Shown one piece after another: positions 8,714 to 32,137 of a stretch of 34,388 nucleotides of DNA. The DNA comes from Parachlamydiales bacterium (GTDB lineage: Bacteria; Chlamydiota; Chlamydiia; Chlamydiales; Rhabdochlamydiaceae), in assembly GCA_020050965.1 (NCBI GenBank), contig JAGVJV010000006.1:1-34388 (forward strand). The letters are read 5' to 3'. Numbering within the stretch: position 1 is the stretch's first letter; the number at the start of each line of letters is the position of its first letter. The notes beneath the pieces were generated by a model. The model did no database searches. It was not told the DNA's origin and saw nothing but the letters and a program-made list of their open reading frames with translations. A program made the translations under genes and the position numbers.

Positions 8714-8801
8714 TAGCTTCAAGGCATATCCAATAGTCTCAATTAACTCAAATACCCAGCCATAAATGCGTTAGGAAACGTTTTTGAGTTAACGAGGCTT
8801 C

Positions 8802-9164: not shown

Positions 9165-11146
9165 CTTCTCAATTCGGCCTTACCCCTCAAGGATTTAAAA
9201 TCAAACGCCTCCCCGACATTCACGCAGAGAATCAAAATCTCCTGCTGGCTGCCTTCGGGGAAATCAACCTTGATCCTCAATCTATCTTCGGCCAACTCAT
9301 CGGCGTGCTTTCCAAAGTGGAAGCCGACATATGGGAAAACATGCAGGACGTCTATTTCAGCCAATATCCAAACTCCGCTGAAGGGATCAGTCTTGACAAT
9401 GTCGTTCAACTAAACGCCATCACAAGACTCGCAGCTCAACAAACAAATGTTACCGCCGTATGTTCTGGATTAGAAGGCACTCTCATCAATCAGGGCGCAC
9501 TGGCCCGAATTCCAGATACAGGCGCGGTTTTCTTCTGCCAGATAGATTCGTTTATCACACGGTCGAATGCAGCCTCCGCTAATGTGCAAGTCGGTTTGGC
9601 TGCAGCTCAATCTTACACCGCCATCATCAATAATCAGGCCATCACTTATTCTCTTCCGATCATCACCTTCACAGGAAGCTTCGTTACTGGAAACTCGATT
9701 GTTGCCACACTAAATGGCACGACACTGCCTGCCGTCCCTTTCAACACGAGCAATAACCAAACCCTTGCAGACTTAGCCTCTGCGATTGCAGCAAATCCTG
9801 ACGTATTATCTGCTACGCCAACCAATCCGAATATCATCAGCATTGTCCCCGTATTAGGCAAAAATGTTGTGGTCAACTCGATCGTCATAACGGGAGGGGC
9901 GTCGCAACCCACCTATGCGGTGACTTTCGATACGCCAACAATCAATGCGGTCTCCCAAAATTTAACCAGCATTATCAATGCTGCAATTTCAACTGTATTA
10001 GCAACGGATCTGGTAGGAAGCCTGTCAATTGTAGCTAACGACCCCGATGTCCCTTTCTCCATCAGCGTAGGAACGAATTTAAGTATTTCTTCTCAATCCT
10101 CTCCCGTTACTTTTTTATCTCAAGACTTTGCTCCTATTGCCGCTCCCATCAATACCTTGGTCGAAATCCTCACTCCTATTTCCGGATGGAATTCGATCAA
10201 TAATCCAAAAGCCGGGGTTACTGGACGCTTTATCGAAACAGATGCTGAATTGCGCATCAGAAGAAACAACTCCATTCGCCTTTTAGGAGCAGGAACTGTT
10301 GAATCCATCAGAGCCCGCCTCCTTCAGCAAGTTCCAGGCGTCACCTCCGCTTTTATTTTCGAAAATAGAACGATGACTCAAGAGCCGATCGACATCGTCT
10401 TGAATCAGGATTTGGTCGCAGGGAATACGATCACAATCGTTTTCAATACCATTCAGACGCTTCCCATTGTCACTTTCGTCACCTCCCATCTGGATACTAT
10501 GAACGCGATAGCACTCGTCATAGCCAACCAGCCTCAAATTGCCTCTGCTGTTGTGGGCGGAACAGCAAATCGAACTATCACCGTATCTATGAAAGAGGCC
10601 GTCGAGGTTGCTATCACAACATTTTCAGTCACAGGCGGCGCGAGCCAAGCGCAAGCAGTATTCAAAGGCGGGCGCCTCGCCAAAAGTTTCGAAGCAGTCG
10701 TAGAAGGAGGTTCCGATGCTGACGTTGCAAATAAAATCTGGCTTACCAAACCGGCGGGCATCCAAACCTTCGGTAATACGGCCTTTACCATCACCGACTC
10801 ACAAGGCGAGCAGCAAGTCATCAACTTCAGCCGCCCCACCCCCATCTACATTTGGATTACGGCTGCACTGACCCTCTATTCCGAAGAGACATTTCCTCCC
10901 AATGGGCAGGATTTGGTCGCAGAAGCCATCAATACTTATGGAAACAATTTAGGGATTGGAGTCGATGTTCTTTTACAACGGGTTCTAGCTCAAATCTTCA
11001 ATGTCCCAGGGATTGCAAGCGGCGCCATGCAGATTGCAGCTACTAACGGTCCCGGCGACAGCCCTCTCTATGGAACGGCAGATATTCCGATCCAAGAAAA
11101 TGAAATAGCGGTATTCGACCTATCGCGCATTACGGTGACGGTATGA
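9161..11146 (+). CDS. Baseplate J-like wedge protein with inserted repeat domains
   Basis: 661 aa with ATGA overlap. TDAELRIRRNNSIRLLGAGTVESIRARLLQQVPGVTSAFIFEN and the C-terminal part fit the Baseplate_J family. Extra repeat units related to those in the sheath are inserted. Confidence 0.8.
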   Translation: MTSQFGLTPQGFKIKRLPDIHAENQNLLLAAFGEINLDPQSIFGQLIGVLSKVEADIWENMQDVYFSQYPNSAEGISLDNVVQLNAITRLAAQQTNVTAVCSGLEGTLINQGALARIPDTGAVFFCQIDSFITRSNAASANVQVGLAAAQSYTAIINNQAITYSLPIITFTGSFVTGNSIVATLNGTTLPAVPFNTSNNQTLADLASAIAANPDVLSATPTNPNIISIVPVLGKNVVVNSIVITGGASQPTYAVTFDTPTINAVSQNLTSIINAAISTVLATDLVGSLSIVANDPDVPFSISVGTNLSISSQSSPVTFLSQDFAPIAAPINTLVEILTPISGWNSINNPKAGVTGRFIETDAELRIRRNNSIRLLGAGTVESIRARLLQQVPGVTSAFIFENRTMTQEPIDIVLNQDLVAGNTITIVFNTIQTLPIVTFVTSHLDTMNAIALVIANQPQIASAVVGGTANRTITVSMKEAVEVAITTFSVTGGASQAQAVFKGGRLAKSFEAVVEGGSDADVANKIWLTKPAGIQTFGNTAFTITDSQGEQQVINFSRPTPIYIWITAALTLYSEETFPPNGQDLVAEAINTYGNNLGIGVDVLLQRVLAQIFNVPGIASGAMQIAATNGPGDSPLYGTADIPIQENEIAVFDLSRITVTV

Positions 11147-11165
11147 CAAACCAGGAGACAGCCAG

Positions 11166-11924
11166 ATGGTCTTAATACCGAATCATGTTCAAAGAGCGAT
11201 CGCACTGCTTGCCGGACAATTCCAGCAAAGCTTGCTGGATGGAGAATATAGCCGGTTCCAACGATTAATCCAGGCTTTTGTCACTCAATTTCAAGAGATA
11301 GACGATGTAAATCAAACGTTGAAATTTGATCGGGCTATTGAAACAGCTGTCGGTGTTCAACTCGACGGCCTAGGGCAGATATTAGGACTCGCCCGGCTGC
11401 CGGACGAAGGCGATGAAGATTACAGGGAAAAGCTGAAATTCCAGATTTTCATTAACAAATCTAATGGAACGCCTGAGGAAGTGATCGCCGTCCTCAAATT
11501 TTTGACTAAAGCAACCAAGGTGCGCTACCACGAATACTATCCGGCAGCTTTTCAAATGGACACAGACGGAATCACCTTCTCCGTTCCTCCGGAGCAGCTG
11601 GTTTCGGCTATTCAATCAGTGAGCCCGGCGGCAGTTCAATACACTCCCATTACAGCAACCTACGGGGTTCCTCTTCCATTTATTTTCAGCGGAGACCCGA
11701 TTATAGAACTGCTCGATGTTTCTCCATTTGAATCCGATCCATTCGACCTCAGAAATCTTCAAGTGCAGACGACCGATCTTTTAGCAGTTAATGCCGGGAA
11801 TGTTGCCAATCCAGCATTTGGAGGCTGTTTTGCAGAATTTGGAACGCCCGACATCGATACGACTGGAGCCGGGCAAATGGCAGAAGTAATCATGTTTAAT
11901 GGCTTTGAGCCGCCACCACCTTAA
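11166..11924 (+). CDS. Baseplate/fibre-socket protein, DUF2612-like
   Basis: 252 aa with AGGAGA RBS. FDRAIETAVGVQLDGLGQILGLARLPDEGDEDYREKLKFQIFINKSNGTPEEVI matches the DUF2612 pattern (tA.G.qLD.lG.ivG..R...dd..yR). Confidence 0.7.
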   Translation: MVLIPNHVQRAIALLAGQFQQSLLDGEYSRFQRLIQAFVTQFQEIDDVNQTLKFDRAIETAVGVQLDGLGQILGLARLPDEGDEDYREKLKFQIFINKSNGTPEEVIAVLKFLTKATKVRYHEYYPAAFQMDTDGITFSVPPEQLVSAIQSVSPAAVQYTPITATYGVPLPFIFSGDPIIELLDVSPFESDPFDLRNLQVQTTDLLAVNAGNVANPAFGGCFAEFGTPDIDTTGAGQMAEVIMFNGFEPPPP

Positions 11925-11934
11925 GGAGACCATT

Positions 11935-12402
11935 ATGGTATCAAAACCAACCGTCCTGCCGGAATGGGCAGAAAATGATGTTGTAGATCCAATCTCAGGG
12001 CAAAATAACGTCCTGGAACCGCCTCCAGAAAAAAAACTCGAAGGCTGGGCAAGGCTCGAATATCCGCCAAGAAACTGGTTCAACTGGCTAGCCCGTTATA
12101 CCTGGAGATGGCTGAACTGGCTAAATCAGCAGGAAGAGCAGGCAATTGTCACAGATGGGTCCGGAACCAATATCTTTCCAACCAGCGGCTCTCTTTGCGT
12201 CTTATTTGCCGTCGACACAGCAAATCCAGCTTCCTATCTCTACGCAATTGGAGCAAATGTCGGAGGGACAGTGACTTTAACGACAGTGGCCAGTGCAACC
12301 TTAGCCATCGGCGTGATTTCCGGAACTTCCGTCCCCATTACAGGAGCTGCAGATCCATCGACAATCATCGCTTGGGGACAAACAAAAATTATTCCGTCTT
12401 AA
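11935..12402 (+). CDS. Tail fibre protein (proximal, baseplate-attaching)
   Basis: ATG 11935 lies behind AAGGAG (the track start 11899 is inside the previous gene). LPEWAENDVVDPISGQNNVLEPPPEKKLEGWARLEYPPRNWFNWLARYTWRWLNWL is a common N-terminal motif of phage tail fibres. Confidence 0.6.
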   Translation: MVSKPTVLPEWAENDVVDPISGQNNVLEPPPEKKLEGWARLEYPPRNWFNWLARYTWRWLNWLNQQEEQAIVTDGSGTNIFPTSGSLCVLFAVDTANPASYLYAIGANVGGTVTLTTVASATLAIGVISGTSVPITGAADPSTIIAWGQTKIIPS

Positions 12403-12411
12403 GGAGAAACC

Positions 12412-13014
12412 ATGAGCACACCTGTACTGATAAGCGATCTTGATCCTGTAGGCGCAATAGATCCTGCCAATGATCTAACTATTGTTCATCAAGGATTTAC
12501 TGATAAAAAAGCCACCATTGCTCAAATAAGGAATTTCGATATCTCCCTATTCGATCCGCTTCCGAGCACGGCTATCAATAACGACTTGCTGGTCATAGGA
12601 AGAGGTTCGACGAATTATCAAATCCGATTCGACCAGGTCAGCTTTGTCGCAGGCACCCAACTCTGGTTTTATCAGGATGTAGCGCCCAGCGGATGGGTAA
12701 CAATTCCCGTCGGCGATTGCTTACTAGGAGTCAAAGGAGGGTCCACCTACACCGTCGGAGGCTCGCTACCCCAAGGAACGTGGCAGACAGCGGATCACAC
12801 CTTGACAATCAACGAAATGCCAGCTCACTCCCATACAATTTCACCATTTTTAATCGGCAAAAATCAGAGAGGTTCGGCTGATACTAAACCATGGAGATCC
12901 GATCACGGAGGAGAGGTTACAACCTCCACCGTTGGAGGAAATGCGCCTCATAATCATGGAGCCTCTTGGAGGCCCCTAGCTGCAACAGGAATTTTATGCC
13001 AAAAACAACCTTAA
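12412..13014 (+). CDS. Tail fibre / receptor-binding protein with phage tail collar-like domain
   Basis: 200 aa with AAGGAG RBS. LTINEMPAHSHT and GGNAPHNHG resemble the Collar / microcystin-dependent-protein family motifs (emP.H.H ... GG...H.N). Confidence 0.65.
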   Translation: MSTPVLISDLDPVGAIDPANDLTIVHQGFTDKKATIAQIRNFDISLFDPLPSTAINNDLLVIGRGSTNYQIRFDQVSFVAGTQLWFYQDVAPSGWVTIPVGDCLLGVKGGSTYTVGGSLPQGTWQTADHTLTINEMPAHSHTISPFLIGKNQRGSADTKPWRSDHGGEVTTSTVGGNAPHNHGASWRPLAATGILCQKQP

Positions 13015-13041
13015 AAAATTAACCAACAATGGGAGAACTCA

Positions 13042-13401
13042 ATGGACTGTACTTCATGTAAAGAAAACTGCCCATTTGTCAAGAGCAAATTATGCGCTTC
13101 CGAAAGAGAATGCCCCAATTTCATGGAATCATGGTGGCAAGAAGGAGGAACCGGGCAGCCGAAGGTTATAGCAGATTGCGCTCCCAAGAGAATGCTGATT
13201 CAGCAGCAGATGGAAGTTAACCGCATGTTCGCGCTGCAGCAGGCCATTGAACAGATGAGAAACCGCCTCGAAAAGCTAGAAGGTCTATTAGGTCAATTGA
13301 TAGAGCAAAGCAAAGAGTACGTTCTCCAGCAAGCTCCTAAGCAAATCGCTAAAAAATCAAACAGGAAGGCGCTTGGCCATGAGTCATCCAATTCTTCTTG
13401 A
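13042..13401 (+). CDS. Cys-rich coiled-coil protein, hypothetical (fibre assembly factor?)
   Basis: 119 aa. Six Cys in the first 46 residues (CTSCKENCPFVKSKLCASERECPNF...DCAP), then a heptad-like helical region (QQAIEQMRNRLEKLEGLLGQLIEQSKE). No family recognised. Confidence 0.5.
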   Translation: MDCTSCKENCPFVKSKLCASERECPNFMESWWQEGGTGQPKVIADCAPKRMLIQQQMEVNRMFALQQAIEQMRNRLEKLEGLLGQLIEQSKEYVLQQAPKQIAKKSNRKALGHESSNSS

Positions 13402-13708
13402 CGCTCTTTCTTGCGAGTTTACGGATAAAAAGCATCTCTCGCCTTCACTGCGGGAAAATGCTTCTCCTGCTTCTGGATCGTTCGTCGTCATAAACCCAAC
13501 GCAAATCATTCCCCTCTTACCCAAATTCCCCAATGCAAAAATGACGGCACATCCATCGAAGGTCTGCTCAGCAGAATCAGGATATTCAACTTTTGCAGCT
13601 CGAAAGATCGATATCCGGCGAGCAGCAAAAGGCCCAGCAGGGCGTAAACATCGTTTAACAACAAAGAAAGAGGCAAGAATATGGCTCGCAATTCATCAGT
13701 CAACTTAG
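13379..13708 (+). CDS. Questionable ORF bridging an otherwise unassigned 280-bp gap
   Basis: ATG 13379 lies 9 nt after AGGAAGG. Encodes a 109-aa basic protein that overlaps both neighbours (23 and 28 nt). No motif recognised, and two antisense frames are also open here. Confidence 0.25.
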
Positions 13709-14346
13709 ATATTTCCAACCTGACGGTTGGATTCAGCATCGGAGGCGGCGCTACAAAAAGAACCGTCACCTACAACGGAAGCGGGGATTACACCCTCACC
13801 AATCAATTTGCCGGAGCGGGGGTTTATACATTCCCCAATAGAGCAGCCGATACTTTAATCGGCTTCGCAGACTATACCGCAAAGGGCGTGATCTTAGTCG
13901 GTACTGGATCGGGAACATTTACTCCATTAACCGTCGGAACAGACACTTTTGTCTTAACCGCCGATTCCACTCAGACATCAGGCGTCAAATGGGCAGCATC
14001 AAGTGGTGGCGGGGGCATTAGTTCATGGATAGACGTTACCGGAACCTCTCAAACAATCGCAGTCAATACCGGCTATATCGCCGACAACGTTGCTTTAGTC
14101 ACCCTGACTCTCCCAACCACAGCAGCTCAAGGCACCACCTTCAGAATTGCGGGAAATGGAGCAGGCGGGTGGCTGTTGGCCCAGAATGCCTCGCAAACGG
14201 TCAATTTTGGAAGTGCAGCCACAACGGCTGGAGTCGGAGGCAGCTTGGCTTCAACAGACCCAGGCGATGCCTTAGAGTGCCTCTGCGTGGTCGCCAATAC
14301 CACATGGAGAGTGTTGAGTGCAGTCGGCAACTTGACCGTCGTTTAG
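13681..14346 (+). CDS. Fibre-family protein A1 (shared adaptor module plus small C-terminal domain)
   Basis: 221 aa. Adaptor-like segment [45 protein letters not shown]. The C-terminal ~105 aa align with ORF 18971..19474 (..GGSLAST...W.VLS.VGNLTVV). Confidence 0.65.
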
Positions 14347-14383
14347 CAAACAAGAACATCCTCACTGTAATGGGTTTTGTAAA

Positions 14384-14881
14384 ATGATTCAAAATAACGC
14401 TGTAAATACATCGATTATCGTTAAAAACAATCAAGTTACGCGTCCATTGCAGTGTACGTTTTTTGCCCAACTAAACGCAAACTTAGGAAATGTCACCGGA
14501 GATGGAACCGTCTACCAGATTCCCTGTGACAATGTCATTGTAGATCAAAGCTCAAGCTATAATCCTCTTACAGGCGTTTTCACAGCTCCTGTGCTAGGAA
14601 ATTATATTTTTGGAGCCTCTATCAACACTCAAGGACTAACGCCCGGAATGAGTGTGTATGTCTTAAAATGCATGACAACAGTGAGAGAATATCGACTTGT
14701 AGAAATGGGAGCCATTACTCCTTCATCTGCATCTCAAACTCTTCAAATAGCCGGTTGTATTTTTGCCCGAATGAATACAAATGATACTGCAATTTTTACG
14801 ATTCAGGTTGCTGGAGGATCAAAAGTTGTCTCCCTACAACCCAATGGCATCTCTTTCATATACGGCTATCTCTTGGATTAA
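14384..14881 (+). CDS. C1q/TNF-like jelly-roll domain protein B1
   Basis: 165 aa. IPCDNVIVDQSSSYNPLTGVFTAPVLGNYIFGASI fits the C1q signature core (x5-[ND]-x4-Y-x6-F-x5-G-x-Y-x-F) except for its first residue. Confidence 0.6.
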   Translation: MIQNNAVNTSIIVKNNQVTRPLQCTFFAQLNANLGNVTGDGTVYQIPCDNVIVDQSSSYNPLTGVFTAPVLGNYIFGASINTQGLTPGMSVYVLKCMTTVREYRLVEMGAITPSSASQTLQIAGCIFARMNTNDTAIFTIQVAGGSKVVSLQPNGISFIYGYLLD

Positions 14882-14886
14882 AAATT

Positions 14887-15414
14887 ATGACTATAAGCAA
14901 CTCTATCAACAATCCAGACTACATCTCAAAAGGGCAAATTCTTGTAGGGAGAAATGGCACTCGTCCTATCATGCTCAATTGGGGATCTTTGAATGGACAG
15001 GTGCTTGCTTGCGACTCTACTACTTCTAGTGGTTTCAAGTACATGTATGGGATGACCGGTTATTACTTGAATACGTTTAATGCAAAAAATACTGGCAATA
15101 CCATCTTCTTTACTACCCCTTCCAGCGGATTTCGTTTTTTCCCTACTCACATCATCATGAGCGTTCTCTTTGCTTCTTCGATTTCCGCTGGCGCGAGTAT
15201 TTCTATCGGCACGAATGGCTCTAGTTACAACAACATCTTGGCGAATACTTCCTTCATCGGACTGACAGCAGCTAATAACTATCAAGTGGTTCAACTCAGC
15301 GGAGTTTTAAACGCTATCCCCGTTAACACGTCAGGATATTTGAATGTTAATACCGCGGCAATAGGGACGTCTATCACGATGAGCTGCGTCATCGTAGGTA
15401 CTTGGTCGCAATAG
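14887..15414 (+). CDS. Fibre-family protein X (adaptor module plus unique C-terminal domain)
   Basis: 175 aa. N-terminus ISKGQILVGRNGTRPIMLNWGSLNGQVLACDSTTSSGFKYM is a diverged copy of the shared adaptor. Confidence 0.55.
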   Translation: MTISNSINNPDYISKGQILVGRNGTRPIMLNWGSLNGQVLACDSTTSSGFKYMYGMTGYYLNTFNAKNTGNTIFFTTPSSGFRFFPTHIIMSVLFASSISAGASISIGTNGSSYNNILANTSFIGLTAANNYQVVQLSGVLNAIPVNTSGYLNVNTAAIGTSITMSCVIVGTWSQ

Positions 15415-15422
15415 AGGAAAAC

Positions 15423-16874
15423 ATGACGACTAACACTTCTATCAATACGCCAGCTCTCTTCAATAAAGGAGATCTTCTTCTGGGACAAGGCAGTGGGCTA
15501 AGACCCAGCGTTCTTCCCGCAGGAGCTAACGGGTTAGTTTTGACGTTAGATAATACTCAGCCTACTGGAGCTAAATGGGCTGCTGGAGGAGGCGGTGGAA
15601 GTACTTTATCTCCTTATATCGTAGGTGCAACGGAAAGCGATTTTACGACGATTCAAGCTGCCATTGATCAAGCTGTGACTGATGGGGCGTCAAAAACAAA
15701 CCAAAAGAACGTCTATGTGAAACCTGGCACTTATAATGAGAATATCTCGCTTTTCGACGGAATAAATGTTCTAGGGTTTGACCCCTATCCAAGCGAGGAC
15801 TATCCAGGCATTCAATTCCCAAACAATGGATTCTTATCTGCTGTCTTGACTGGAACGGTTACTCATAGCAGTGGGGATAGCAAGATTTACAATATTTATA
15901 TTAAGCCAGGAGATGGCTTCAATGCTTTTAATTTAAGCGCTATCGGCGGACTTCTTTTTATCCGAGGATGTCGATTCGATCTTCCTACTACTTCGATTTT
16001 GTTAAATTTCAGCAATGCAGACACGGTTGTCATATCTGATTGCATTTCAGCTAGTGGGTTCGGTCAATTTCTCACATGTACCTCAACCGACATAGCCTCA
16101 GTGGCTATTTTTAGTAGCGAAATTTTATCAATGACAACATCTACTCTTCCTATGGGAGGGGCATCAATTCAGCTCTCAAATAGTTATCTATACGCCTCTA
16201 TAGACGCTTCAAACGCATCCATTTTTTATTTTCAAGCCTACGATTCTCAGCACTGGCCCAATGGAAGTGATCCATTGATTCAAATAGGAGCGTCCACAAA
16301 CTCATTTATTACTTACGTCGGGTCACAATTTGCTTCTCCAGAAAACAATGCCTTTATCATTCCCAATAGCGATACGCCAGTTCGTCTAGTCAATTCTTGG
16401 AATATTAGCGGTGGAAACAATGTGAGTGGTGGGGGCATCGCTTTTAAAAACTTCATCACAGGGCCGTCAGGGGAGAGCATTTTAGTCAAAAACATTAGTG
16501 CCGGCTTCAATGGCACGGATTACATCTTTACTCAAGGCGGTTTGCAAACATCAGACGACTCTACTCAGCTACTTGCAAGTATGGTCTTAAACACGAACGA
16601 GTCAATCACGTTAATGGGAAACGTTGTAGGCGCTCAAAGCGATCATAGCAATGCCGTGGGAGGAGATTTTACCGTTACAGCAAGAAGAAGTTCAGGAGAC
16701 ATAACCTTAATCGGTAGCCCTATCGTGAATGTCCGTTCTTCATCAACGGCTACCTTCACCGTAGATGTCGATACAACAACACAGTCTGCACGCGTGCTTG
16801 TCACTGGGGTTGCAGCTACCGTTTATAACTGGGTTGCTACTCTGCAATATCAAAAAATACTAACCAATGCGTGA
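15423..16874 (+). CDS. Tailspike C1, right-handed beta-helix (pectin-lyase-fold-like) putative depolymerase
   Basis: ATG 15423 lies behind GAGGAAA (the track start 15402 is a TTG inside the previous gene). Shared adaptor MTTNTSINTPALFNKGDLLLGQGSGLRPSVLPAGANGLVLTLDNTQPTGAKWAAGGGGG. Then YIVGATESDFTTIQAAIDQAVTDGAS..NVYVKPGTYNENISLFDGINVLGF, typical of beta-helix N-caps. Confidence 0.75.
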   Translation: MTTNTSINTPALFNKGDLLLGQGSGLRPSVLPAGANGLVLTLDNTQPTGAKWAAGGGGGSTLSPYIVGATESDFTTIQAAIDQAVTDGASKTNQKNVYVKPGTYNENISLFDGINVLGFDPYPSEDYPGIQFPNNGFLSAVLTGTVTHSSGDSKIYNIYIKPGDGFNAFNLSAIGGLLFIRGCRFDLPTTSILLNFSNADTVVISDCISASGFGQFLTCTSTDIASVAIFSSEILSMTTSTLPMGGASIQLSNSYLYASIDASNASIFYFQAYDSQHWPNGSDPLIQIGASTNSFITYVGSQFASPENNAFIIPNSDTPVRLVNSWNISGGNNVSGGGIAFKNFITGPSGESILVKNISAGFNGTDYIFTQGGLQTSDDSTQLLASMVLNTNESITLMGNVVGAQSDHSNAVGGDFTVTARRSSGDITLIGSPIVNVRSSSTATFTVDVDTTTQSARVLVTGVAATVYNWVATLQYQKILTNA

Positions 16875-16880
16875 ATAAAT

Positions 16881-18425
16881 ATGACGATTAATACTTCCAT
16901 CAATACACCAGCCCTCTTCAACAAGGGAGACCTCCTTCTAGGAAAAGGAGGAGGCTTAAGACCTGGTATTCTTCCAGCTTCAACGAATGGGTTTGTGTTA
17001 ACACTTGATAATACCCAGCCGACTGGAGCCAAATGGGCTACCGCTTCTGGAGGAGGAACGACTCTTTCACCCTATATCGTAGGATCGACAGGCAGTGATT
17101 TCACGACAATTCAAGCGGCTATCAATCAAGCCGTGACTGATGGGGCCTCTCATTCAACTCCAAAAAATATCTATATTAAATCTGGAACGTACGTCGAAAA
17201 CCTTATAGTATATGATGGGATCTCTCTTATTGGATTTGACCCTATCAACTTCACTCAAGATTACCAATATGGAATACCAAACATCTCGAGCCTTCCAAGT
17301 ATTCAATTAACGGGGAGTATTTCTTTTTCTCCAAGCGGCGGTCAATCGTGCAAAATTTTCAATATGTGGATCCAACCAACAACAGGATCTGCTATTTATC
17401 TGACCTGCGCTTCTCTTACAGGCATTCTTTTTAAAGGTTGCTTTATTCAAACCACTCAATCTGGGAACTCCATTTTTTCTTATACCCCGGCAGTTGCGAC
17501 CATGTGGGTTTGTTTTGAAGAAAGCGTCTTGTCCGACAACACAGCCAATACCACTTTGTTTAGCTATACAGGCTCTGGCGGCTTGCTCAAGCTCATAATC
17601 TCAAATTGCTTCGTCCAAGCATCACAAATTCAAGCTGCTATAATCCCGGCAAGTTCCACTTTCCATATGCAAGTTTCGAGCACCGTTCTTCTCTCATGCT
17701 TTGACGCGTCTGCTAGTTCAGTCTATTACCAATTTGTCGCGTATAACACCATGCACATTCAAACAGGTGCGGTCTCAATTGGAGCCTTCCATTTAATCGG
17801 CGCCTCAACAACAAACAGCTCATACATTGATTACACTAATTCTTCGATTGGCATATCAAGCGTTAATAAAGTAGCCATCATCAACAATTCAAACATCTCT
17901 TTTAATGCATTCAATACTTCCTTCTGGGGTCCTAACTTAATGACTGCAGGCTACTCCGACGTGATTACAGGAGGAAAAGTCGTTACTGCCGGATGCCAAT
18001 GCAGTCCAGCTGCAGGTCTATTTCTAGAAAGAAGGCAGTTAATCGGATCTGGATTCACTGGCTCGCAGCAGTACACAGGGCAAGCAGGTCTACAAACTTC
18101 AAACAGCACAATGCAAACACTCGCCGCAATTGTTGTTAATCAAGCTGAATCCATTACTCTTACAGGGACCATTACAGCGGCCCAAAATGATCATTCCAAC
18201 ATGGTGGGCGGAGATTTTCTTATTTGTGCAAGGAGAGCCAGTGGAGGAAATGTCACTCTTATAGGATCGCCTATTGTCAATGTCGAAAGCTCTTCCGCTG
18301 CTACTTTTACCTGCGATGTCGACACTTCCACACAGGCAGTGCGCATCAGAATCTCTGGAATATCCTCAACGATTTACAACTGGGCTTGCACTTACAGCTA
18401 TCAAAAAGTCTTAACAAATGCATAA
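16881..18425 (+). CDS. Tailspike C2, paralog of C1 with a divergent central beta-helix
   Basis: 514 aa. The N-terminal ~110 aa and C-terminal ~110 aa align with C1 (..DHSN.VGGDF...ARR.SG...TLIGSPIVNV.SSS.ATFT.DVDT.TQ...YQK.LTNA). The central region is not obviously alignable. Confidence 0.75.
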   Translation: MTINTSINTPALFNKGDLLLGKGGGLRPGILPASTNGFVLTLDNTQPTGAKWATASGGGTTLSPYIVGSTGSDFTTIQAAINQAVTDGASHSTPKNIYIKSGTYVENLIVYDGISLIGFDPINFTQDYQYGIPNISSLPSIQLTGSISFSPSGGQSCKIFNMWIQPTTGSAIYLTCASLTGILFKGCFIQTTQSGNSIFSYTPAVATMWVCFEESVLSDNTANTTLFSYTGSGGLLKLIISNCFVQASQIQAAIIPASSTFHMQVSSTVLLSCFDASASSVYYQFVAYNTMHIQTGAVSIGAFHLIGASTTNSSYIDYTNSSIGISSVNKVAIINNSNISFNAFNTSFWGPNLMTAGYSDVITGGKVVTAGCQCSPAAGLFLERRQLIGSGFTGSQQYTGQAGLQTSNSTMQTLAAIVVNQAESITLTGTITAAQNDHSNMVGGDFLICARRASGGNVTLIGSPIVNVESSSAATFTCDVDTSTQAVRIRISGISSTIYNWACTYSYQKVLTNA

Positions 18426-18457: not shown

Positions 18458-18946
18458 ATGACGGGATTTAATAATGGCTTTTTGCTTTCTGATAATTTTC
18501 CCTTCTTTGCCTATCAAAGCACCTCACAATCAGCGATCACTGGTGGAGGAGCCACAGCCACACTAATTTGTGACACAGAAATATTTGATCCATTCAATGG
18601 ATATGATCCATCGACAGGACTCTATACGATCCCTTCAATCTTTCCCATCGGCACATGGTTTTTCCAAGGGAAAGTAACTATCACAGGCATTACTGCCTCC
18701 CATACCACAGCTATATTTTCTATCACCAACGTCAATAGGAATCTGTATTACGAAATAAATGCTGCTAATTCGAGAACTTCGGGTAATGAACTGACACTAC
18801 AAGTATGCGGTTTTATAAATGGAATCAGCCCTGGAAGCATAATCAACCCGCAAATCCAAGTTCTTGGCGGATCTAATGTCGTAGGAACAAAGGCTACTGG
18901 AGATCAATGGTGTGATTTTGGAGGAATTTTCATTAAATCGAGCTAA
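18458..18946 (+). CDS. C1q/TNF-like domain protein B2
   Basis: 162 aa with AAAGGAAA RBS. LICDTEIFDPFNGYDPSTGLYTIPSIFPIGTWFFQGKV parallels the B1 motif, with a 3-residue insertion before G-x-W-x-F. Confidence 0.5.
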   Translation: MTGFNNGFLLSDNFPFFAYQSTSQSAITGGGATATLICDTEIFDPFNGYDPSTGLYTIPSIFPIGTWFFQGKVTITGITASHTTAIFSITNVNRNLYYEINAANSRTSGNELTLQVCGFINGISPGSIINPQIQVLGGSNVVGTKATGDQWCDFGGIFIKSS

Positions 18947-18970: not shown

Positions 18971-19474
18971 ATGACTCATAATTCCATTAACACCCCAGCC
19001 CTTCTTAGTAAAGGAGACCTACTCCTAGGAAAAGGTGGCGGCCTTAGCCCCGCTATTTTATCAGCTGCAACCAATGGATTCGTTCTAACACTCGATAACA
19101 CGCAGCCTACAGGAGCCAAATGGGCGGCTAGTGGAGGTGGTGGCGGAATTACATGGAATACCGTTTCTGGAACATCTCAATCGGCGGCTGTGAACAACGG
19201 CTACATCGCGAACAACGCAAGCCTTGTCACTGTTACTCTTCCTTCGAGTGCTTCAGTCGGAGATATGGTCGAAATAGCCGGAAAGGGAGCAGGCGGATGG
19301 AAGGTCGCACAAAACTCAGGCCAGGTCATCCACATGGATGGCGTGGACTCAACGACTGGAACTGGAGGCAGCCTTGCCTCTACAGTAAGATACGATGCAG
19401 TTCGTCTGCTTTGTATTACAGCTAATACGGATTGGCTGGTCCTCTCAGGAATCGGCAACTTAACGGTGGTGTAA
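18971..19474 (+). CDS. Fibre-family protein A2 (adaptor plus A-type C-terminal domain)
   Basis: 167 aa with GAGGAAAA RBS. INTPALLSKGDLLLGKGGGLSPAILSAATNGFVLTLDNTQPTGAKWAASGGGGG, then a domain alignable with the A1 C-terminus. Confidence 0.65.
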   Translation: MTHNSINTPALLSKGDLLLGKGGGLSPAILSAATNGFVLTLDNTQPTGAKWAASGGGGGITWNTVSGTSQSAAVNNGYIANNASLVTVTLPSSASVGDMVEIAGKGAGGWKVAQNSGQVIHMDGVDSTTGTGGSLASTVRYDAVRLLCITANTDWLVLSGIGNLTVV

Positions 19475-19475
19475 T

Positions 19476-20228
19476 ATGCCAGTACAAGATTTCATCAATC
19501 GATACGCGATGTCCACGGGGTATACGAATAAGCTTTCAGGATTGGCTTACGTTCCTGCAAACGGAACGCCAGCAGCTAGTGGAACTGTAGATTGGTATAC
19601 GTGTCCAGCAGGGAAAAGAGCAGCTGTCATGGGGATAAGCTATTGCTCTCCTTCAGGAAATGCAAGCATAACCCCAATGCTTAAGTCGGGGGGCAATTAT
19701 TACAACCTGAATGTTACTCAAACAGCCACATCTATCGGAGTAGGTGCAGGCGGAATCGTCAATCTCATCATCTTGGAAGCTGGTGAATCGATCTCGACCA
19801 ATCAAAGCACGTCTTCGATCAACGTGTGGATTTCGATTATGGAGTTTGATTCGGATATTCCCTTCAAGACAGTGAAGCTTCTTTCATTGGCCAGCGGAAA
19901 TAACACTCTTTATAGCTGCCCTGCAGGGAAAACAGCTATTTTTGTAAGCGATAATCTCAGTCCTTTATCAGCCAGTTCAGTTAAGTCCGTTAATTATTGG
20001 AACAATAGCGGAGGAAGCAGAAACATTTCAGCTTATCATGTGCCTAACGGAGGATCTCCAGGATCAAGCAATCAATTTTTACCCACAATCCCTCAAGCCG
20101 TTGCAAATAGTTCCTTTATGACAAATTCAGCAGTAAGTAATTGCATGAACGCAGGCGACTCAATTGTAATCAATACCGATGCAGCCACAGCAACTCAATT
20201 TGCGTGGGTAACAGTGCAGGAGATTTAA
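19476..20228 (+). CDS. D-family protein 1 (two tandem ~115-aa domains), function unknown, probably structural
   Basis: 250 aa. Each half starts with Y(T/S)CPAGK(R/T)A and ends with an (A/E)G(D/E)SI...W..(V/I).E(F/I) pattern. Paralogous to the next two genes. Confidence 0.65.
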   Translation: MPVQDFINRYAMSTGYTNKLSGLAYVPANGTPAASGTVDWYTCPAGKRAAVMGISYCSPSGNASITPMLKSGGNYYNLNVTQTATSIGVGAGGIVNLIILEAGESISTNQSTSSINVWISIMEFDSDIPFKTVKLLSLASGNNTLYSCPAGKTAIFVSDNLSPLSASSVKSVNYWNNSGGSRNISAYHVPNGGSPGSSNQFLPTIPQAVANSSFMTNSAVSNCMNAGDSIVINTDAATATQFAWVTVQEI

Positions 20229-20969
20229 ATGCCTAATCAAAATGATGTAAACAATCTGATTTATCACCCTGAAGGGGTGTATTTGCCGGGTGTAAAATTT
20301 CCATCCGCATTCGTCTCTAACGCAGGATCAGGCAATGTGGATATGTACACTTGCCCTGCAAGCAAAAGAGCCTGTGTGAGTTACATTATTGGCTACAACA
20401 CGGCTGGAACAACCACACCCATTTTTCCAGTTCTTTATGTGAGCGGCACTTATTATCGCATAGGAGGAGCTGGGAACGCGGCTACAACAGCGCAAACACA
20501 GGTTTTAGTAGCCAACCAAGCTATAATTTTAGAGGCTGGGGAAAGAATCGGCGTAAATACAACTCAAGTTGGCATGAATCTTTGGGCCAATATTGTTGAA
20601 TTCGATAATACAGCTCCCATCAAGAGCAGCAAGGTTGTGAGCTTGTCCAATGGAAATAACACTGTTTATACGTGTCCTTCAGGTAAAAAAGCGATCACTC
20701 TAGACCAATGGTTTAAAACGAATTTTACCTTGAAAAAGGTCTTCTATTTCAACAATTCAGGGAACAGCGTTTCTTTGATTTGGTACGCCGTTCCTAGCGG
20801 AGGATCACCTGGATCTACAAACCAAATGGGAACAGAAACTGTTACTACAGGATCAGCCTCAGCTCGACTCATTGGCGGCTTAATATTAAGCGCGGGTGAT
20901 TCCATCGTAGTCAATACAAACGTAGGAACGGGAACTCAAACCGCTTGGGTCAACGTAATGGAGCTATAA
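20229..20969 (+). CDS. D-family protein 2
   Basis: 246 aa. The start abuts the previous stop. Motifs YTCPASKRA and YTCPSGKKA. C-terminus SAGDSIVVNTNVGTGTQTAWVNVMEL. Confidence 0.65.
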   Translation: MPNQNDVNNLIYHPEGVYLPGVKFPSAFVSNAGSGNVDMYTCPASKRACVSYIIGYNTAGTTTPIFPVLYVSGTYYRIGGAGNAATTAQTQVLVANQAIILEAGERIGVNTTQVGMNLWANIVEFDNTAPIKSSKVVSLSNGNNTVYTCPSGKKAITLDQWFKTNFTLKKVFYFNNSGNSVSLIWYAVPSGGSPGSTNQMGTETVTTGSASARLIGGLILSAGDSIVVNTNVGTGTQTAWVNVMEL

Positions 20970-20970
20970 A

Positions 20971-21696
20971 ATGGGAAATAATGTCATAAACAATACCGTT
21001 TTCATAAGTGGTTTTGGCCCTCTAGTGAGAGGGGCTAAGTTCGTTAATGCATTCTCTGGAAGTACCTCTGGAACCGTCGACATTTATACATGTCCTGCAG
21101 GAAAAAAAGCTTTCATCACCCAAGTGATGGGTATTAGCTCTCCGATTATGACAGGGGGAATGCAACTAAAAGTTTCAGGAAATTATTACAATATTACTCC
21201 TCAGAACACCGGCTGGGGAAATATAGCCACTAATTCGTTTGGAATTGTACTAAATGCAGGTGAGGGATTGTCGTTCACGGTGAACTCTAATGCCGGAGGA
21301 AATCTTTGGGCTAGAGTGATGGAAATGGATATTTCTACCCCCATTTATACTGCAAAGCTATTGAGTTTATCTGCAGGAGACAACACTATTTTCACCGTCA
21401 GCGCGGGGAAAACAGCTATTACTCTAGATACTCTTGGAGGAGTCTACGTCAACGGATCTGGAGGTTTATATAAAAATTTCTCTGGAGCAAGCAGAAGCAT
21501 TAAAGTCTACCACGTTCCAAATGGTGGCTCTAGCGGAACTGGCAATCAATACTTTCAAAACACCGCTGTGGCAAACAGTTCTGGGGTCGTCGTCCCTTCC
21601 GTTCCTGCCTCCATGAACGCAGGCGACTCAATTGTGATTAATACAGACGCAGCTACGGCTACGCAATGGGTTTATATGACATATTATGAAATCTAA
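20971..21696 (+). CDS. D-family protein 3
   Basis: 241 aa. Motifs YTCPAGKKA and FTVSAGKTA. The C-terminal MNAGDSIVINTDAATATQ is identical to D1 at protein level, including a 23-nt exact DNA match (20145-20167 = 21613-21635). Confidence 0.65.
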   Translation: MGNNVINNTVFISGFGPLVRGAKFVNAFSGSTSGTVDIYTCPAGKKAFITQVMGISSPIMTGGMQLKVSGNYYNITPQNTGWGNIATNSFGIVLNAGEGLSFTVNSNAGGNLWARVMEMDISTPIYTAKLLSLSAGDNTIFTVSAGKTAITLDTLGGVYVNGSGGLYKNFSGASRSIKVYHVPNGGSSGTGNQYFQNTAVANSSGVVVPSVPASMNAGDSIVINTDAATATQWVYMTYYEI

Positions 21697-21697
21697 G

Positions 21698-21746
21698 ACC
21701 CCCTAAAAGTTCAGTTTCAATCTCATCAAAAATCAGGGGTTTTTTG
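21698..21746 (+). terminator. Weak terminator-like hairpin plus T-run at the end of the late operon
   Basis: ACCCC (21698-21702) pairs with GGGGT (21736-21740), followed by T5 and G. The stem is only 5 bp and the loop is ~33 nt, so this is atypical. Confidence 0.3.
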
Positions 21747-21775
21747 TTCACTCTTTTAACATTTCTTTGTATAAT
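21747..21775 (+). promoter_or_regulatory. Candidate sigma70-type promoter for the CoiA-like gene
   Basis: TTCACT (21747-21752), a 17-nt spacer, then a perfect TATAAT (21770-21775), ~40 nt upstream of the start codon. Confidence 0.3.
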
Positions 21776-21816
21776 TTCTCTCTACCAACGGTCAATAAAA
21801 AGGAAACGTGGTAGGA

Positions 21817-22608
21817 ATGAAATATGCATTAGTAAATGACACTCCTCAAGAAGCCCAGCCTGGCCTTTCCGGAAAATGCAAATGCTGTGGTAGTCCGACT
21901 ATACCAAAGTGTGGAGAATTGAAAATTTGGCATTGGGCCCACAGCGGAAAACGGATGTGTGATCCCTGGTGGGAAAATGAAACCGAATGGCACCGCGCAT
22001 GGAAAGGGCACTTTCCTAAAGAGTGCCAAGAGGTCATTCATACCGCCGTAAATGACGAAAAGCACATTGCTGATGTGAAGACAGGTCAAAGTTACGTAAT
22101 TGAGTTCCAGCATTCCCATCTAGCTTCTCAAGAACGAATCATACGTGAGGCTTTCTATCAAAATATGGTATGGGTTATCGACAGTACGCGCCTAAAGAAA
22201 GATTATCCCCGCTTTCTTGAAGCAAGAAAAAATTTCAGTCCTATCTACAAACCAGGATTCTTCTTGGTCTATTTCCCTGAAGAATGTTTCCCCGCTGCAT
22301 GGGTTGAGAGCTCAGTGGAAGTTGTTTTCGATTTCCAAGGTAATCCACCAACCGATTCGCAAGATGGGATGCGAGATACCCTATGGTGTTTGTTACCGGG
22401 ACGCGCTAGAAGAGGTGCTGTGGTGATTGCAATTTCGCGTCAGACTTTCATAACAACACTCTTGAAACAACCTAGGTTGCTTCCGAATCCGGCTCACGAG
22501 TTTGTTAACGCTCTCGATAAATTGCTTGCAGAACAAGCAGAGATAAGGGAACAACAGACACAAAAGCACCAATGGCAGCCTCGTAATAAGAGGACATGGC
22601 GGCTCTAA
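21817..22608 (+). CDS. CoiA-like nuclease-family protein
   Basis: ATG 21817 (the track start 21808 is a GTG). CKCCGSPTIPKCGELKIWHWAH ... EKHIADVKTGQSYVIEFQHSHLASQERIIREAFYQNMVWVIDS matches the competence protein CoiA-like family pattern (C..C...hFaH ... aDv....iEfQ.S.is..e...R...Y....vWi.d). Confidence 0.65.
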   Translation: MKYALVNDTPQEAQPGLSGKCKCCGSPTIPKCGELKIWHWAHSGKRMCDPWWENETEWHRAWKGHFPKECQEVIHTAVNDEKHIADVKTGQSYVIEFQHSHLASQERIIREAFYQNMVWVIDSTRLKKDYPRFLEARKNFSPIYKPGFFLVYFPEECFPAAWVESSVEVVFDFQGNPPTDSQDGMRDTLWCLLPGRARRGAVVIAISRQTFITTLLKQPRLLPNPAHEFVNALDKLLAEQAEIREQQTQKHQWQPRNKRTWRL

Positions 22609-29867: not shown

Positions 29868-30746
29868 TTATCCTCGAGATAGGAGGTCTTCAAGGATTTT
29901 CCAGCAACGCTTTGATTCAAAATTGTCTGGATTGGTATTTCCGGCTGCCGTGATAAGAGCCTTCCATAAAGTCCAGGCTTTACCTCGTACCCACGTGTGC
30001 TCATCTAGGGGGAGGGCTTTGCGTAAAGCTTTTCTGCTTTCTCCGTGAAAGAAAGTCCAAGCGATTGAAAGATCGCAAGAAGGATCACCAACGGCCATTT
30101 GCCCAAAATCGATTACCGCAGAGAGGCAACCATCACGGATAAGCAAATTTCCCGGACTAAGATCGCCGTGGATCCATACATTTGGTCTTTCCCAGCGTGA
30201 GGCAAGAGCTTTTTCCCAGAGTTCGATTGCGCTCTGCGCATCGATTCTGTCTTTGAGAGTTTCTATGGCTTTCCTTGTTTCGGCGTCGTAATAGTGGAGA
30301 GGGGAGCCTCGATAAAAACTATGAAAGCCGGGGAGTGGGCCGTTTTTTGCATCAATGGAATGTAGAGCGCTGAGGAACTTCGCGAGATCCTTAGCAAGCG
30401 CTACAAGATCGATTTTAGTGGCTCCGGATGCTGGAGTTCCTTCGATCCATCGTCTGATCGACCATCTCCACGGATAGCCTTCTCCTGGCATTCCTATGGC
30501 AATTGATTGAGGAATCTCAAAAGGAAGAAGGGGAGCGAGCTTTGGAAGCCAAAAATGTTCTTTTTCTACTTGTGGCTCATAGGCTTCTGCACTTGGCATC
30601 CTTATAAGCATCTCAGTACCTAGATGGAAAGTCCTATTGTCCCAGCCTCCAAGGGCCACAGGATCAATGCGCAGATCCTTCCATTGTGGGAATTGGGCTG
30701 CAATTAGCCGGTGTGCAAGCTCTGCGTTTATTTTAGATTTATCCAT
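29868..30746 (-). CDS. APH-family (aminoglycoside phosphotransferase-like) small-molecule kinase
   Basis: 292 aa. GGWDNRTFHLG near the N-terminus. Catalytic loop WIHGDLSPGNLL and metal-binding VIDFGQMAVGDPSCDL are typical of the phosphotransferase enzyme family. The substrate cannot be inferred. Confidence 0.8.
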   Translation of the reverse strand: MDKSKINAELAHRLIAAQFPQWKDLRIDPVALGGWDNRTFHLGTEMLIRMPSAEAYEPQVEKEHFWLPKLAPLLPFEIPQSIAIGMPGEGYPWRWSIRRWIEGTPASGATKIDLVALAKDLAKFLSALHSIDAKNGPLPGFHSFYRGSPLHYYDAETRKAIETLKDRIDAQSAIELWEKALASRWERPNVWIHGDLSPGNLLIRDGCLSAVIDFGQMAVGDPSCDLSIAWTFFHGESRKALRKALPLDEHTWVRGKAWTLWKALITAAGNTNPDNFESKRCWKILEDLLSRG

Positions 30747-31243: not shown

Positions 31244-32137
31244 CTAGGCTGAGGCTGCCAGGCTTTCAAATGGCAGTGATGGGGTGTTGGCAGGTGTCTG
31301 CGCTCCAACTTTGCCTTTTGCTCTCTTTTCAACGTTCTGCTGATCTGTTTTCCATTTATTGAAGGCAGTTAGGAATCCTGATTCATTGGAAACGGCCGAA
31401 TTGATAATTTGAGCTTCTGTCTTGTTGGTAGCCTGAGCGATTTTACGGACATAAGCCACCTTGTCGTCCTCGCACAGGTGTTTTTGGCAGAAATCCTCAT
31501 ACCCATCGGCTTTTTCTTGCTCGATTTGCTTTGGAGCTTCCTTTTGAGGTTCTTCCGGGGTTTTATAAACCTCTACTGAACGCGTGGCAAGATCAGGCAC
31601 TGCTGTTGGAATGGATCCGTCTTCTTCTCCGAGTTCTCCTATGGCATAGGCATTCATGATTACATCGGGCATGAATTTTCTTGATCCGCCGGAAAGGCAG
31701 CGGCTGAAAAGCATGTCCTTGGGTGACTTTTTCCAGTTATCTTTTCCAAGATAGCCGGCTTTTGCAGCCATTTCAATCGTATATTCATATTCAAATGTGC
31801 AGTTGTCTTTTGGACGGTCGGAGCGCCAGAATCTAATTCGGCATATTTTTTCATCGAGCTGCAAGACATCAGCTCTGTGGCCGGCATTCACAATCAGCAT
31901 GTTCATGAGCTGAGCGGAAAGGCTGACAAGCCCCGAAAAGGTGTACATGCCTCCATTCAGGCACATCATTAAAGGAAGGTTCATTTCTCTGGCCGTTAAA
32001 TAGATTGCGAGGACTCCGCCGGATCCGAGCTTTTGATAATAGGGGCAGGTAGCCAGGACTTTGCAAACTGAAATGACTTGATCCAACTCTTGGCCTACGG
32101 GCATTGAGAAGGAATTTCGAAGGGCTAGTTGATTCAT
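31244..32137 (-). CDS. recT: RecT-family single-strand annealing protein
   Basis: 297 aa. The central region (..GGVLAIYLTAREMNLPLMMCLNGGMYTF.. ..AAKAGYLGKDNWKKSPKDMLFSRCLSGGSRKFMPDVI) resembles RecT. Sits in an operon with a PD-(D/E)XK nuclease. Confidence 0.65.
   Translation of the reverse strand: MNQLALRNSFSMPVGQELDQVISVCKVLATCPYYQKLGSGGVLAIYLTAREMNLPLMMCLNGGMYTFSGLVSLSAQLMNMLIVNAGHRADVLQLDEKICRIRFWRSDRPKDNCTFEYEYTIEMAAKAGYLGKDNWKKSPKDMLFSRCLSGGSRKFMPDVIMNAYAIGELGEEDGSIPTAVPDLATRSVEVYKTPEEPQKEAPKQIEQEKADGYEDFCQKHLCEDDKVAYVRKIAQATNKTEAQIINSAVSNESGFLTAFNKWKTDQQNVEKRAKGKVGAQTPANTPSLPFESLAASA

Follow-up and report, generated by a model that had tools for sequence, protein, structure and literature searches.

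Receptor-binding proteins decide the host range of phages and are the phage parts most often engineered. Phage fibres are trimers, and in the T2/S16-type system the gp37 tip is capped non-covalently by gp38, a free-standing protein of ~250 amino acids (aa) whose gene lies directly downstream of the distal fibre gene. A single copy of gp38 is bound; it is a polyglycine-rich sandwich and carries receptor specificity, with variable segments on a conserved scaffold. To our knowledge, no phage fibre tip made of three different paralogous chains has been described so far, and our literature search found no heterotrimeric fibre paralogs. Here we analyze three tandem genes, D1, D2 and D3, at the 3′ end of a contractile-tail module in a 34,388-nucleotide (nt) stretch of DNA assigned to a Parachlamydiales bacterium (assembly GCA_020050965.1, contig JAGVJV010000006.1, positions 1 to 34,388), referred to below as the window; coordinates are positions within it unless a locus is named. 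A distal-fibre role is likely for the three products, and there is good support for their having a role in the virion. Whether they are incorporated there and jointly make up the distal, receptor-binding head of a tail fibre in two parts is, in our judgement, an even call.

The three genes and the parts of D1 are as follows.

19476..20228, forward strand: D1, open reading frame (ORF) of 250 aa, position-1 paralog
~residues 1-20 of D1: leader
19533-19856, ~residues 20-127 of D1: sandwich 1
19857-20225, ~residues 128-250 of D1: sandwich 2
20229..20969, forward strand: D2, ORF of 246 aa, position-2 paralog
20971..21696, forward strand: D3, ORF of 241 aa, position-3 paralog, with IFTVSAGKTA as its second-domain motif

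The D1 stop codon abuts the D2 ATG (TAAATG, a spacing of 0 nt), and 1 nt separates the D2 stop from the D3 start. An initial annotation made from the sequence had described three abutting genes of 250, 246 and 241 aa encoding tandem paralogs with six copies of one ~115-aa domain, and its ORF coordinates agree exactly with ours. Pairwise blastp bears out the paralogy, with identities of 41% between D1 and D2 (E 7e-48), 45% between D1 and D3 (E 1e-50) and 37% between D2 and D3 (E 1e-37). Within each protein the N-terminal and C-terminal halves are 25–27% identical (pairwise blastp, E 1e-4 to 1e-8), and alignment of the two half profiles, drawn from a 46-member family alignment, gives a probability of 98.8% and an E of 6.7e-17 over 90 columns (hhalign), so the count of six copies is formally right. 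The opening CPAGK motif and the closing motif can also be read as first described: WYTCPAGKRA and LYSCPAGKTA open the repeats of D1, MYTCPASKRA and VYTCPSGKKA those of D2, and IYTCPAGKKA and IFTVSAGKTA those of D3, with (E/N/S)AG(E/D)...E(F/I/L/M) as the closing motif. Each repeat thereby follows the pattern of the wider family, Y-T-x-P-x-G-K-x-A at the start and (E/N)AG(E/D)...E-(F/I/L) at the end. All three proteins match the family profile, A1, over their full length (E 1e-88 to 1e-97) and conform to the family in ending ~1–3 residues past the conserved Glu, where the module reaches the extreme C terminus of the protein.

Searches with D1–D3, the family profile and the isolated halves returned no significant match in Pfam, PHROGs, NCBIfam or PDB sequences, as expected from the initial annotation, which could place the domain in no named family. 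Nanobodies, the sole PDB sequence matches (E ~0.1), were taken as chance. Searches of 50,697 phage records with D1 (tblastn) and with 24 kb of the window (megablast) were likewise empty. The domain had been called unrecognised, which is true of its name in databases and not of its abundance: a profile search of 1.84 billion cluster representatives (50% clustering) recovered 2,521 proteins with E ≤ 1e-3 and 769 with E ≤ 1e-30. In a 90%-clustered protein collection D1 has 76 relatives, all unnamed and none with a Pfam domain. The module family is undescribed, while the category to which we would assign it, the phage receptor-binding element, is already known.

Among the best 150 of the 2,521 proteins, the module is either free-standing (~245 aa) or located at the extreme C terminus of proteins of up to 1,403 aa. 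The N-terminal parts of the fused members resemble classic fibre N termini, match tail-fibre PHROGs and match 'tail fiber protein' genes of Pelagibacter, Synechococcus and Methylophilales phages; in the 50,697 deposited phage genomes these fibre N termini account for every match, and the module part has none. Module homologs are covalently joined to recognisable fibre shafts and N termini, and a distal fibre element, one of several roles offered at first sight, is best supported by these proteins, in which the module follows a bona fide tail-fibre N-terminal part. D1–D3 themselves are encoded at the end of the tail and fibre cluster, a position shared by their relatives with the exception of locus L015. 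Single-domain relatives of ~107–110 aa are retrieved by the family hidden Markov model (HMM) with E 1e-11 to 1e-15 and belong to phrog_1276 and phrog_20100, labelled 'unknown function'. A 62-aa N-terminal extension of one family member, P0010, was considered as an adaptor and rejected; it resembles the out-of-frame upstream gene and is best explained by a mis-called start.

AlphaFold2, run on D1 with the family alignment, predicts a two-domain all-beta protein (predicted local distance difference test (pLDDT) score 83, predicted template-modelling (TM) score 0.82), and the predicted fold is a tandem pair of jelly-roll-like beta-sandwiches. Its best neighbour among predicted viral structures is a 722-aa protein of an uncultured phage (TM 0.81, 25% identity). 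Cyanophage 'tail fiber-like' proteins follow at TM ~0.63 (range 0.61–0.64), and one domain alone finds counterparts, at a target TM of ~0.8, in dozens of proteins of ~110 aa, a few of them carrying the annotation 'virion structural protein'. A fold search of the PDB found no close solved structure for the module (best TM ~0.4). The best folds there are PHM (TM 0.36–0.43), CBM22 tandems, cupins and the PM2 spike P1, and for the predicted model these signify only a fold-class likeness to tandem jelly-roll and beta-sandwich proteins. No His or Met occurs among the invariant or nearly invariant family columns, and the copper ligands of PHM are absent because no conserved column holds a histidine. 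D1–D3 have no match to the C1q Pfam family (PF00386) or to gC1q structures in the PDB. The description 'lectin-like' is compatible with the predicted fold.

The copy number of the module points to the way in which D1–D3 may be used. When the family HMM was searched against six-frame ORFs of 46 loci, fused-module loci contained one module copy in 26/26 cases, and the 12 loci whose modules are free-standing (certain of these loci are near-identical to one another) held exactly three tandem genes (10/12) or six (2/12). Exact sets of three occur in the close relatives of the window and in the more distant L015 and L017. The six modules of L003 and L004 are two complete triplets, and L003 has one window-type and one L008/L014-type triplet. 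These two contigs are near-identical and carry their triplets back to back (L003 7484-12218, L004 3747-8481); the third gene of the first triplet in L004 is seemingly truncated (201-aa ORF). Wherever the module is not fused to a shaft, the number per locus is three or a multiple of three. Two-module fusion proteins, P0078 and P0082, are each followed by one single-module gene with a 4-nt overlap (E 5e-43 and 1e-26), and P0077 holds three modules within a single chain. P0077, a protein of 995 aa, begins with a signal or transmembrane segment and contains three two-domain modules in tandem, a long linker rich in Pro and Thr, and transmembrane helices at its C terminus; as judged from its sequence, the three-module unit has here been recruited as a cell-surface structure in a cellular-looking protein.

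In a neighbour-joining tree (Poisson distance), the position-1, position-2 and position-3 genes form three clades with 100% bootstrap each, and gene order is fixed. In the distant sets, modules have their nearest relatives within their own set (bootstrap 95% for L049, 92% for P0077 and 78% for L051), and identity within a set exceeds identity between sets in every set except L017. Modules of the distant sets allow no one-to-one assignment to the D1, D2 and D3 types, and we therefore read them as independent triplications: sets of three arose, or were homogenised, independently in several lineages. Since fibres are trimeric, each fibre contains a fused module in triplicate. Three free-standing paralogs match this stoichiometry, which is the main argument for 1:1:1 assembly. 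The term hetero-oligomeric, used at the outset for D1–D3, gains comparative support from the fixed sets of three (module counts, 2+1 fusions and the tree), and the physical complex is a step beyond it; we regard a D1–D2–D3 heterotrimer as close to an even possibility, leaning slightly toward doubt.

A candidate partner is encoded immediately upstream.

18971..19474, forward strand: stub protein of 167 aa, with an anchor/adaptor at ~residues 1-55 and a C-terminal XD1-like beta-sandwich (~100 aa); its gene ends 1 nt before D1

The stub matches residues 72–125 of the CBA120 TSP4-N250 structure 7rfv, the start of its XD1 domain, with E 3.7e-4 (phmmer). Its AlphaFold2 model (pLDDT 91) retrieves TSP4-N by Foldseek at 25–27% identity, probability 1.0 and E 4e-7, together with a Klebsiella phage baseplate chain, tailspike N termini, CpaA and T4 gp9; these matches include XD1 relatives listed previously (PMC8825819). 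The protein has an XD1-type sandwich following an N-terminal anchor domain and is an anchor plus connector with no distal body. In the chlamydial-type loci, and also in the distant L017, L049 and L051, the gene that immediately precedes the three-module set ends in a homolog of the stub's C-terminal domain, at 50–55% identity. The domain was not found in fused fibres.

These observations suggest the following model. In most phages with the module, it would form the covalent C-terminal end of a fibre that is presumably a homotrimer, with three identical copies at the tip. In this lineage the module would have been detached from the fibre and triplicated, and expression of the tightly packed genes most likely yields their products in equal amounts. 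The three proteins would assemble 1:1:1 into a heterotrimer with six beta-sandwiches, which probably docks on the free distal XD1-like face of the short trimeric stub, through the N-terminal leaders or a face of the module. The stub would in turn plug into the baseplate and fibre network through the anchor domain that it has in common with other fibres. Contact with the host surface would fall to stretches that vary on an otherwise conserved scaffold, and recombination that swaps the whole triplet would alter host range. Incorporation into the virion, 1:1:1 assembly, docking on the stub and receptor binding are all features that we infer.

An arrangement that we consider unlikely is that D1, D2 and D3 are three separate homotrimeric receptor-binding proteins with three specificities, each seated on the stub or baseplate as in the branched tailspikes of Ackermannviridae. 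The window clearly belongs to a multi-fibre phage, with at least five proteins that share one anchor and two C1q-like proteins; the paralogs, merely 37–45% identical, could bind different ligands, and the module is presumably homotrimeric in fused fibres. Separate proteins should, however, be gained, lost and replaced one at a time, whereas every count is three or six, gene order does not vary and D1, D2 and D3 diverge at the same pace. Homotrimers are also hard to square with the 2+1 fusions and with the single chain of three modules, sets of three arose repeatedly, and a single stub gene lies directly upstream of the triplet.

Comparison with related phages shows how the triplet diverges. 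Baseplate and wedge proteins are 86–96% identical among these phages. Identities of D1, D2 and D3 are 97, 96 and 93% to L003; 90, 92 and 90% to L005; 77, 76 and 71% to L007; 70, 65 and 64% to L013; and 65, 68 and 64% to L008. No other block of the tail module is as divergent as the triplet, which is exchanged as a unit and more modularly than the rest of the tail. The ratio of nonsynonymous to synonymous substitution rates (dN/dS) is 0.04–0.12 for D1–D3 orthologs (Nei-Gojobori), indicating strong purifying selection and therefore real, constrained genes. The dS of D1–D3 is below that of the baseplate genes relative to L003 and L005 and is saturated relative to L013 and L008; this decoupling means that the triplet has its own recombinational history. 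Hot-spots of variation at ~residues 80–100, 160–170 and 200–215 recur in all three paralogs. Such co-variation and exchange of the triplet is the behaviour expected of a host-range determinant.

The same divergence bears on the proposal, raised in the initial annotation, that D1–D3 are fibre chaperones, that is, free-standing versions of C-terminal intramolecular chaperone domains that are absent from the mature virion or only loosely attached to it. Their genes lie at the very end of the fibre cluster, the usual place of Tfa- and gp38-type chaperones, and in fused proteins the homologous module invariably occupies the C terminus, as intramolecular chaperone domains do. We nevertheless find this role improbable, because D1–D3 diverge more than every neighbouring candidate client: relative to L008 the stub is 86% identical, a 221-aa fibre protein 93% and a C1q-like protein 84%, and D1–D3, at only 64–68%, track none of them. 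Searches of Pfam, PHROGs and NCBIfam gave no chaperone-family match, and the invariant or nearly invariant columns lack the conserved Ser/Lys that self-cleavage of the Peptidase_S74 type requires. The structural neighbours are annotated as virion or tail-fibre proteins, and three different chaperones in fixed stoichiometry would be without precedent.

One stretch that D1 and D3 have in common had been read as a sign of selection on the protein.

20145..20198 (in D1) and 21613-21666 (in D3), forward strand: 18-aa family motif MNAGDSIVINTDAATATQ, with the first 23 nt identical

The peptide MNAGDSIVINTDAATATQ is identical in the two proteins, and the exact DNA match at 20145-20167 and 21613-21635 is 23 nt long, or 24 nt if one upstream base is counted. 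Beyond the exact run there are 8 differences in 31 nt, all synonymous, so that 46/54 nt are identical overall. The peptide, the match and the synonymous changes are real, and the constraint is not specific to the pair: the consensus of the whole family over these 18 residues is LNAGDxIVxNTxAATATQ, and the stretch thus marks no special relationship between D1 and D3. The longest exact runs between position-1 and position-3 genes in L005, L001, L013 and L008 measure 5–12 nt, and the long run is particular to this lineage. Gene conversion between D1 and D3 is one candidate explanation that we considered.

Several observations weigh against a heterotrimeric head on the stub. Stub-type genes in the distant L073, L074 and L076 are followed by unrelated small genes, which makes the link between stub and triplet one-directional. 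The L015 triplet is separate from the tail module, though this phage has a related contractile tail. P0077 is membrane-anchored and cellular-looking, and the module is accordingly not exclusive to virions. Concerted evolution inside a locus could mimic independent triplication. Variation among orthologs is not confined to predicted loops (variable positions make up 42% of those in strands and 45% of those outside). Both 1:1:1 assembly and docking are read from comparison of sequences. Finally, XD1 domains in TSP4, gp9 and gp10 serve as spacers and not as docking faces (PMC8825819); docking here presupposes that an XD1 at the C terminus leaves a three-fold face free.

In its most complete form, our proposal is that D1–D3 would be an obligate, pseudo-three-fold heterotrimer of six jelly rolls on a C-terminal XD1 trimer, exchanged as a three-gene host-range cassette, and that ordinary homotrimeric fibre ends would have given rise to this design on at least three or four separate occasions, here in a ~90–100 kb contractile-tailed phage-plasmid that infects environmental Chlamydiota. 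With all parts taken jointly, we put this forward tentatively and think it somewhat doubtful.

It is very improbable that D1–D3 are instead a moron outside the tail, an accessory group of lectin- or adhesin-like proteins with a function inside the host cell or at its surface, for instance altering or hiding a receptor there: such a role would suit the L015 triplet, a stand-alone operon between a regulator and an integrase and apart from the tail genes, the presence of the three-module unit on the signal-peptide-bearing, membrane-anchored, cellular-type P0077, and the resemblance of the fold to PHM/PNGase F and CBM22 tandem sandwiches, but no signal peptide is visible in the D1–D3 sequences, triplets directly follow same-strand fibre genes in 11/12 loci, module homologs are covalently fused to fibre shafts and the L015 contig still encodes a related contractile tail. 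In L015 (IMGVR_UViG_3300049255_000556, positions 5798-15043), the triplet stands between a divergent XRE/ImmA-like regulator and a tyrosine recombinase, near a gene for a predicted outer-membrane beta-barrel with a signal peptide; the sheath of this phage, 86% identical, is located on L057.

The remainder of the fibre cluster, which spans 11.9–19.5 kb and is followed by D1–D3, includes the genes below.

13681..14346, forward strand: second stub-type protein, 221 aa, followed by a C1q-like gene
14384..14881, forward strand: C1q/TNF-like protein, 165 aa, directly after the 221-aa stub-type gene
14887..18425, forward strand: three more fibre or spike genes encoding 175, 490 and 514 aa, with the same N-terminal anchor/adaptor
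18458..18946, forward strand: C1q-like paralog, 162 aa

The C-terminal domain of the 221-aa protein is 55% identical to that of the 167-aa stub (blastp E 1.5e-45). The protein encoded at 14384-14881 matches the Pfam C1q family above the gathering score (E 7.6e-6) and the gC1q domains of EMILIN-1 and collagen X in the PDB (E 5e-4), and its 162-aa paralog is 28% identical to it (blastp E 2.5e-10) and matches phrog_15750 (E 1e-4). These two proteins may be alternative trimeric plug-in heads, and the succession of a second stub-type gene and a C1q-like gene suggests a general layout of socket plus plug-in head. In phages of the L005/L006 type, represented by L046 (4976-7057), the first stub-type gene is followed by a 693-aa fibre gene with the classic N-terminal pattern 'PLSGGTMTG...ATKSYVD' and by no C1q-like gene, which means that the slot after the stub gene varies between relatives.

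The 490-aa (15402-16874) and 514-aa (16881-18425) proteins are paralogs with 45% identity and show a weak pectinesterase-like match (PRK10531, E 5.7e-6, far under the curated cut-off); judging from sequence, they may be beta-helix tailspikes. Past the adaptor, both contain a segment of the form '...SPYIVG...DFTTIQAAI(D/N)QA...'. The N-terminal adaptor of ~55 aa is common to five fibre proteins, the stub included, and is missing from D1–D3, a distinction already drawn in the initial annotation. A shorter motif, M-x(1-3)-[QN]-N-x-[IV]-N, occupies the first ~9 residues of D1–D3 and of nearly all fibre-cluster proteins (those starting at 13681, 14384, 14887, 15402, 16881, 18971, 19476, 20229 and 20971) and is also found in L015, L017 and L046. 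Proteins that carry the motif and lack the adaptor are D1–D3 and the C1q-like protein at 14384-14881, and the motif may be a docking peptide that the cluster proteins have in common. A gene at mid-cluster, 13042-13401, encodes a 119-aa protein with a Cys-rich N terminus (CxxCxxxC...C....C) and a coiled-coil-like C-terminal half, which is 78–90% conserved in related loci.

Upstream of the fibre genes, the tail module comprises neck and head-completion proteins, a tail terminator, sheath, a tube-type protein, an assembly chaperone, a tape measure, a baseplate hub and a gp6-like wedge. An exact-sequence look-up with the first protein of the window matched no record. Past D3 the content changes to a CoiA-like protein, ParA, a DnaG-DnaB primase-helicase, an APH-type kinase, a RecT-like protein and a PD-(D/E)XK nuclease, and the following features were located.

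21697..21807, forward strand: intergenic gap of 111 nt past D3, with an inverted repeat CCCC(C)T...AGGGG, then TTTTTT, and a promoter-like site at 21747-21775
21808-22608: CoiA-like protein, just under the Pfam cut-offs and present in only some relatives
29868-30746, reverse strand: APH-family phosphotransferase (E 1e-41)
31244-32137, reverse strand: RecT-like annealase
33370-33927, reverse strand: PD-(D/E)XK or Cas4-like nuclease

The suggestion that D1–D3 close the late operon agrees with the 111-nt gap, its T-run and its promoter-like site, and does not extend to the hairpin; a canonical terminator was rejected there (loop of 33 nt, z = -0.9).

With its contractile tail and plasmid-like maintenance genes, the element is either a phage or a phage-plasmid; its host is uncultured. 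Its nearest loci (L003 and L005–L008) are on contigs of 88–98 kb from metagenome-assembled genomes labelled Chlamydiae, Rhabdochlamydiaceae, 'Verrucomicrobia' (one) or uncultured bacterium, and the NCBI names of the stub homologs (P0208 and P0211) agree. Close relatives are also present in the very fragmented assemblies GCA_013558375.1 and GCA_013573075.1. The window looks like part of a ~90–100 kb contractile-tailed phage or phage-plasmid (ParA plus primase-helicase) of environmental Chlamydiota, where the link to Chlamydiota comes from the binning of these genomes and is no proof of host. We know of no described tailed phages of Chlamydiota, and a literature search found no tailed phages or phage-plasmids of Chlamydiae; the element may thus give a first look at the adsorption apparatus of Chlamydiota-associated tailed phages.

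More broadly, this work defines a large family of fibre-tip modules whose 2,521 representatives have neither a database name nor a solved structure and are a target for annotation and structure determination. The sets of three suggest that a heterotrimer of diverged paralogs can replace a homotrimeric fibre tip, and a head of three paralogs would be an unusual way of building a phage fibre. If true, a heterotrimeric tip would break the three-fold symmetry of the binding surface and could offer as many as three distinct binding sites. It would introduce a new principle both in the design of fibres and in the way host range evolves through exchange of cassettes.

Known systems resemble parts of this arrangement. 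Like the gp38 adhesin, each D protein is a free-standing protein of ~250 aa encoded right after a fibre gene. No relationship to gp38 in sequence or fold is known; three paralogous tandem-beta-sandwich proteins occur here, and their proposed partner is a short AD-XD1 stub in place of a long fibre. PHM/PNGase F tandems, CBM22 tandems and the PM2 spike P1 likewise contain two consecutive beta-sandwiches of ~8 strands (Foldseek probability up to 1.0, for PHM), but at a TM of only 0.36–0.43, a root-mean-square deviation of 8–12 Å and 8–11% identity to the D1 model. The cyanophage 'tail fiber-like' proteins of S-CAM1 (M4QS96) and P-SSM2 (Q58M40; both BFVD models) have the same predicted fold and a virion or tail-fibre annotation, yet are only 10–22% identical, have functions at the level of annotation and have no known triplet organisation. 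The gC1q head of complement offers a functional analogy only: it is a jelly-roll heterotrimer of three paralogous chains from three clustered genes, and its single-chain three-module version (PDB 5hkj) parallels P0077. D1–D3 are not homologous to it and have two sandwiches per chain as opposed to one, and the C1q-like proteins of the window are encoded by other genes.

The closest relatives of the stub are found in CBA120 TSP4-N and T4 gp10-gp9 (PDB 7REJ, 7RFO, 7RFV and 1QEX; PMC8825819), where AD and XD1 are related to it in both sequence and fold and where small trimeric beta-domains act as sockets for separately encoded receptor-binding proteins. Docking in TSP4 and gp10 takes place on XD2 and XD3, whereas the stub stops after XD1, and the partners of TSP4 and gp10 are homotrimeric tailspikes with XD domains of their own, of which D1–D3 have none. 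A short stub with a plug-in head would extend the adaptor logic of T4 gp9/gp10 and the Ackermannviridae tailspikes.

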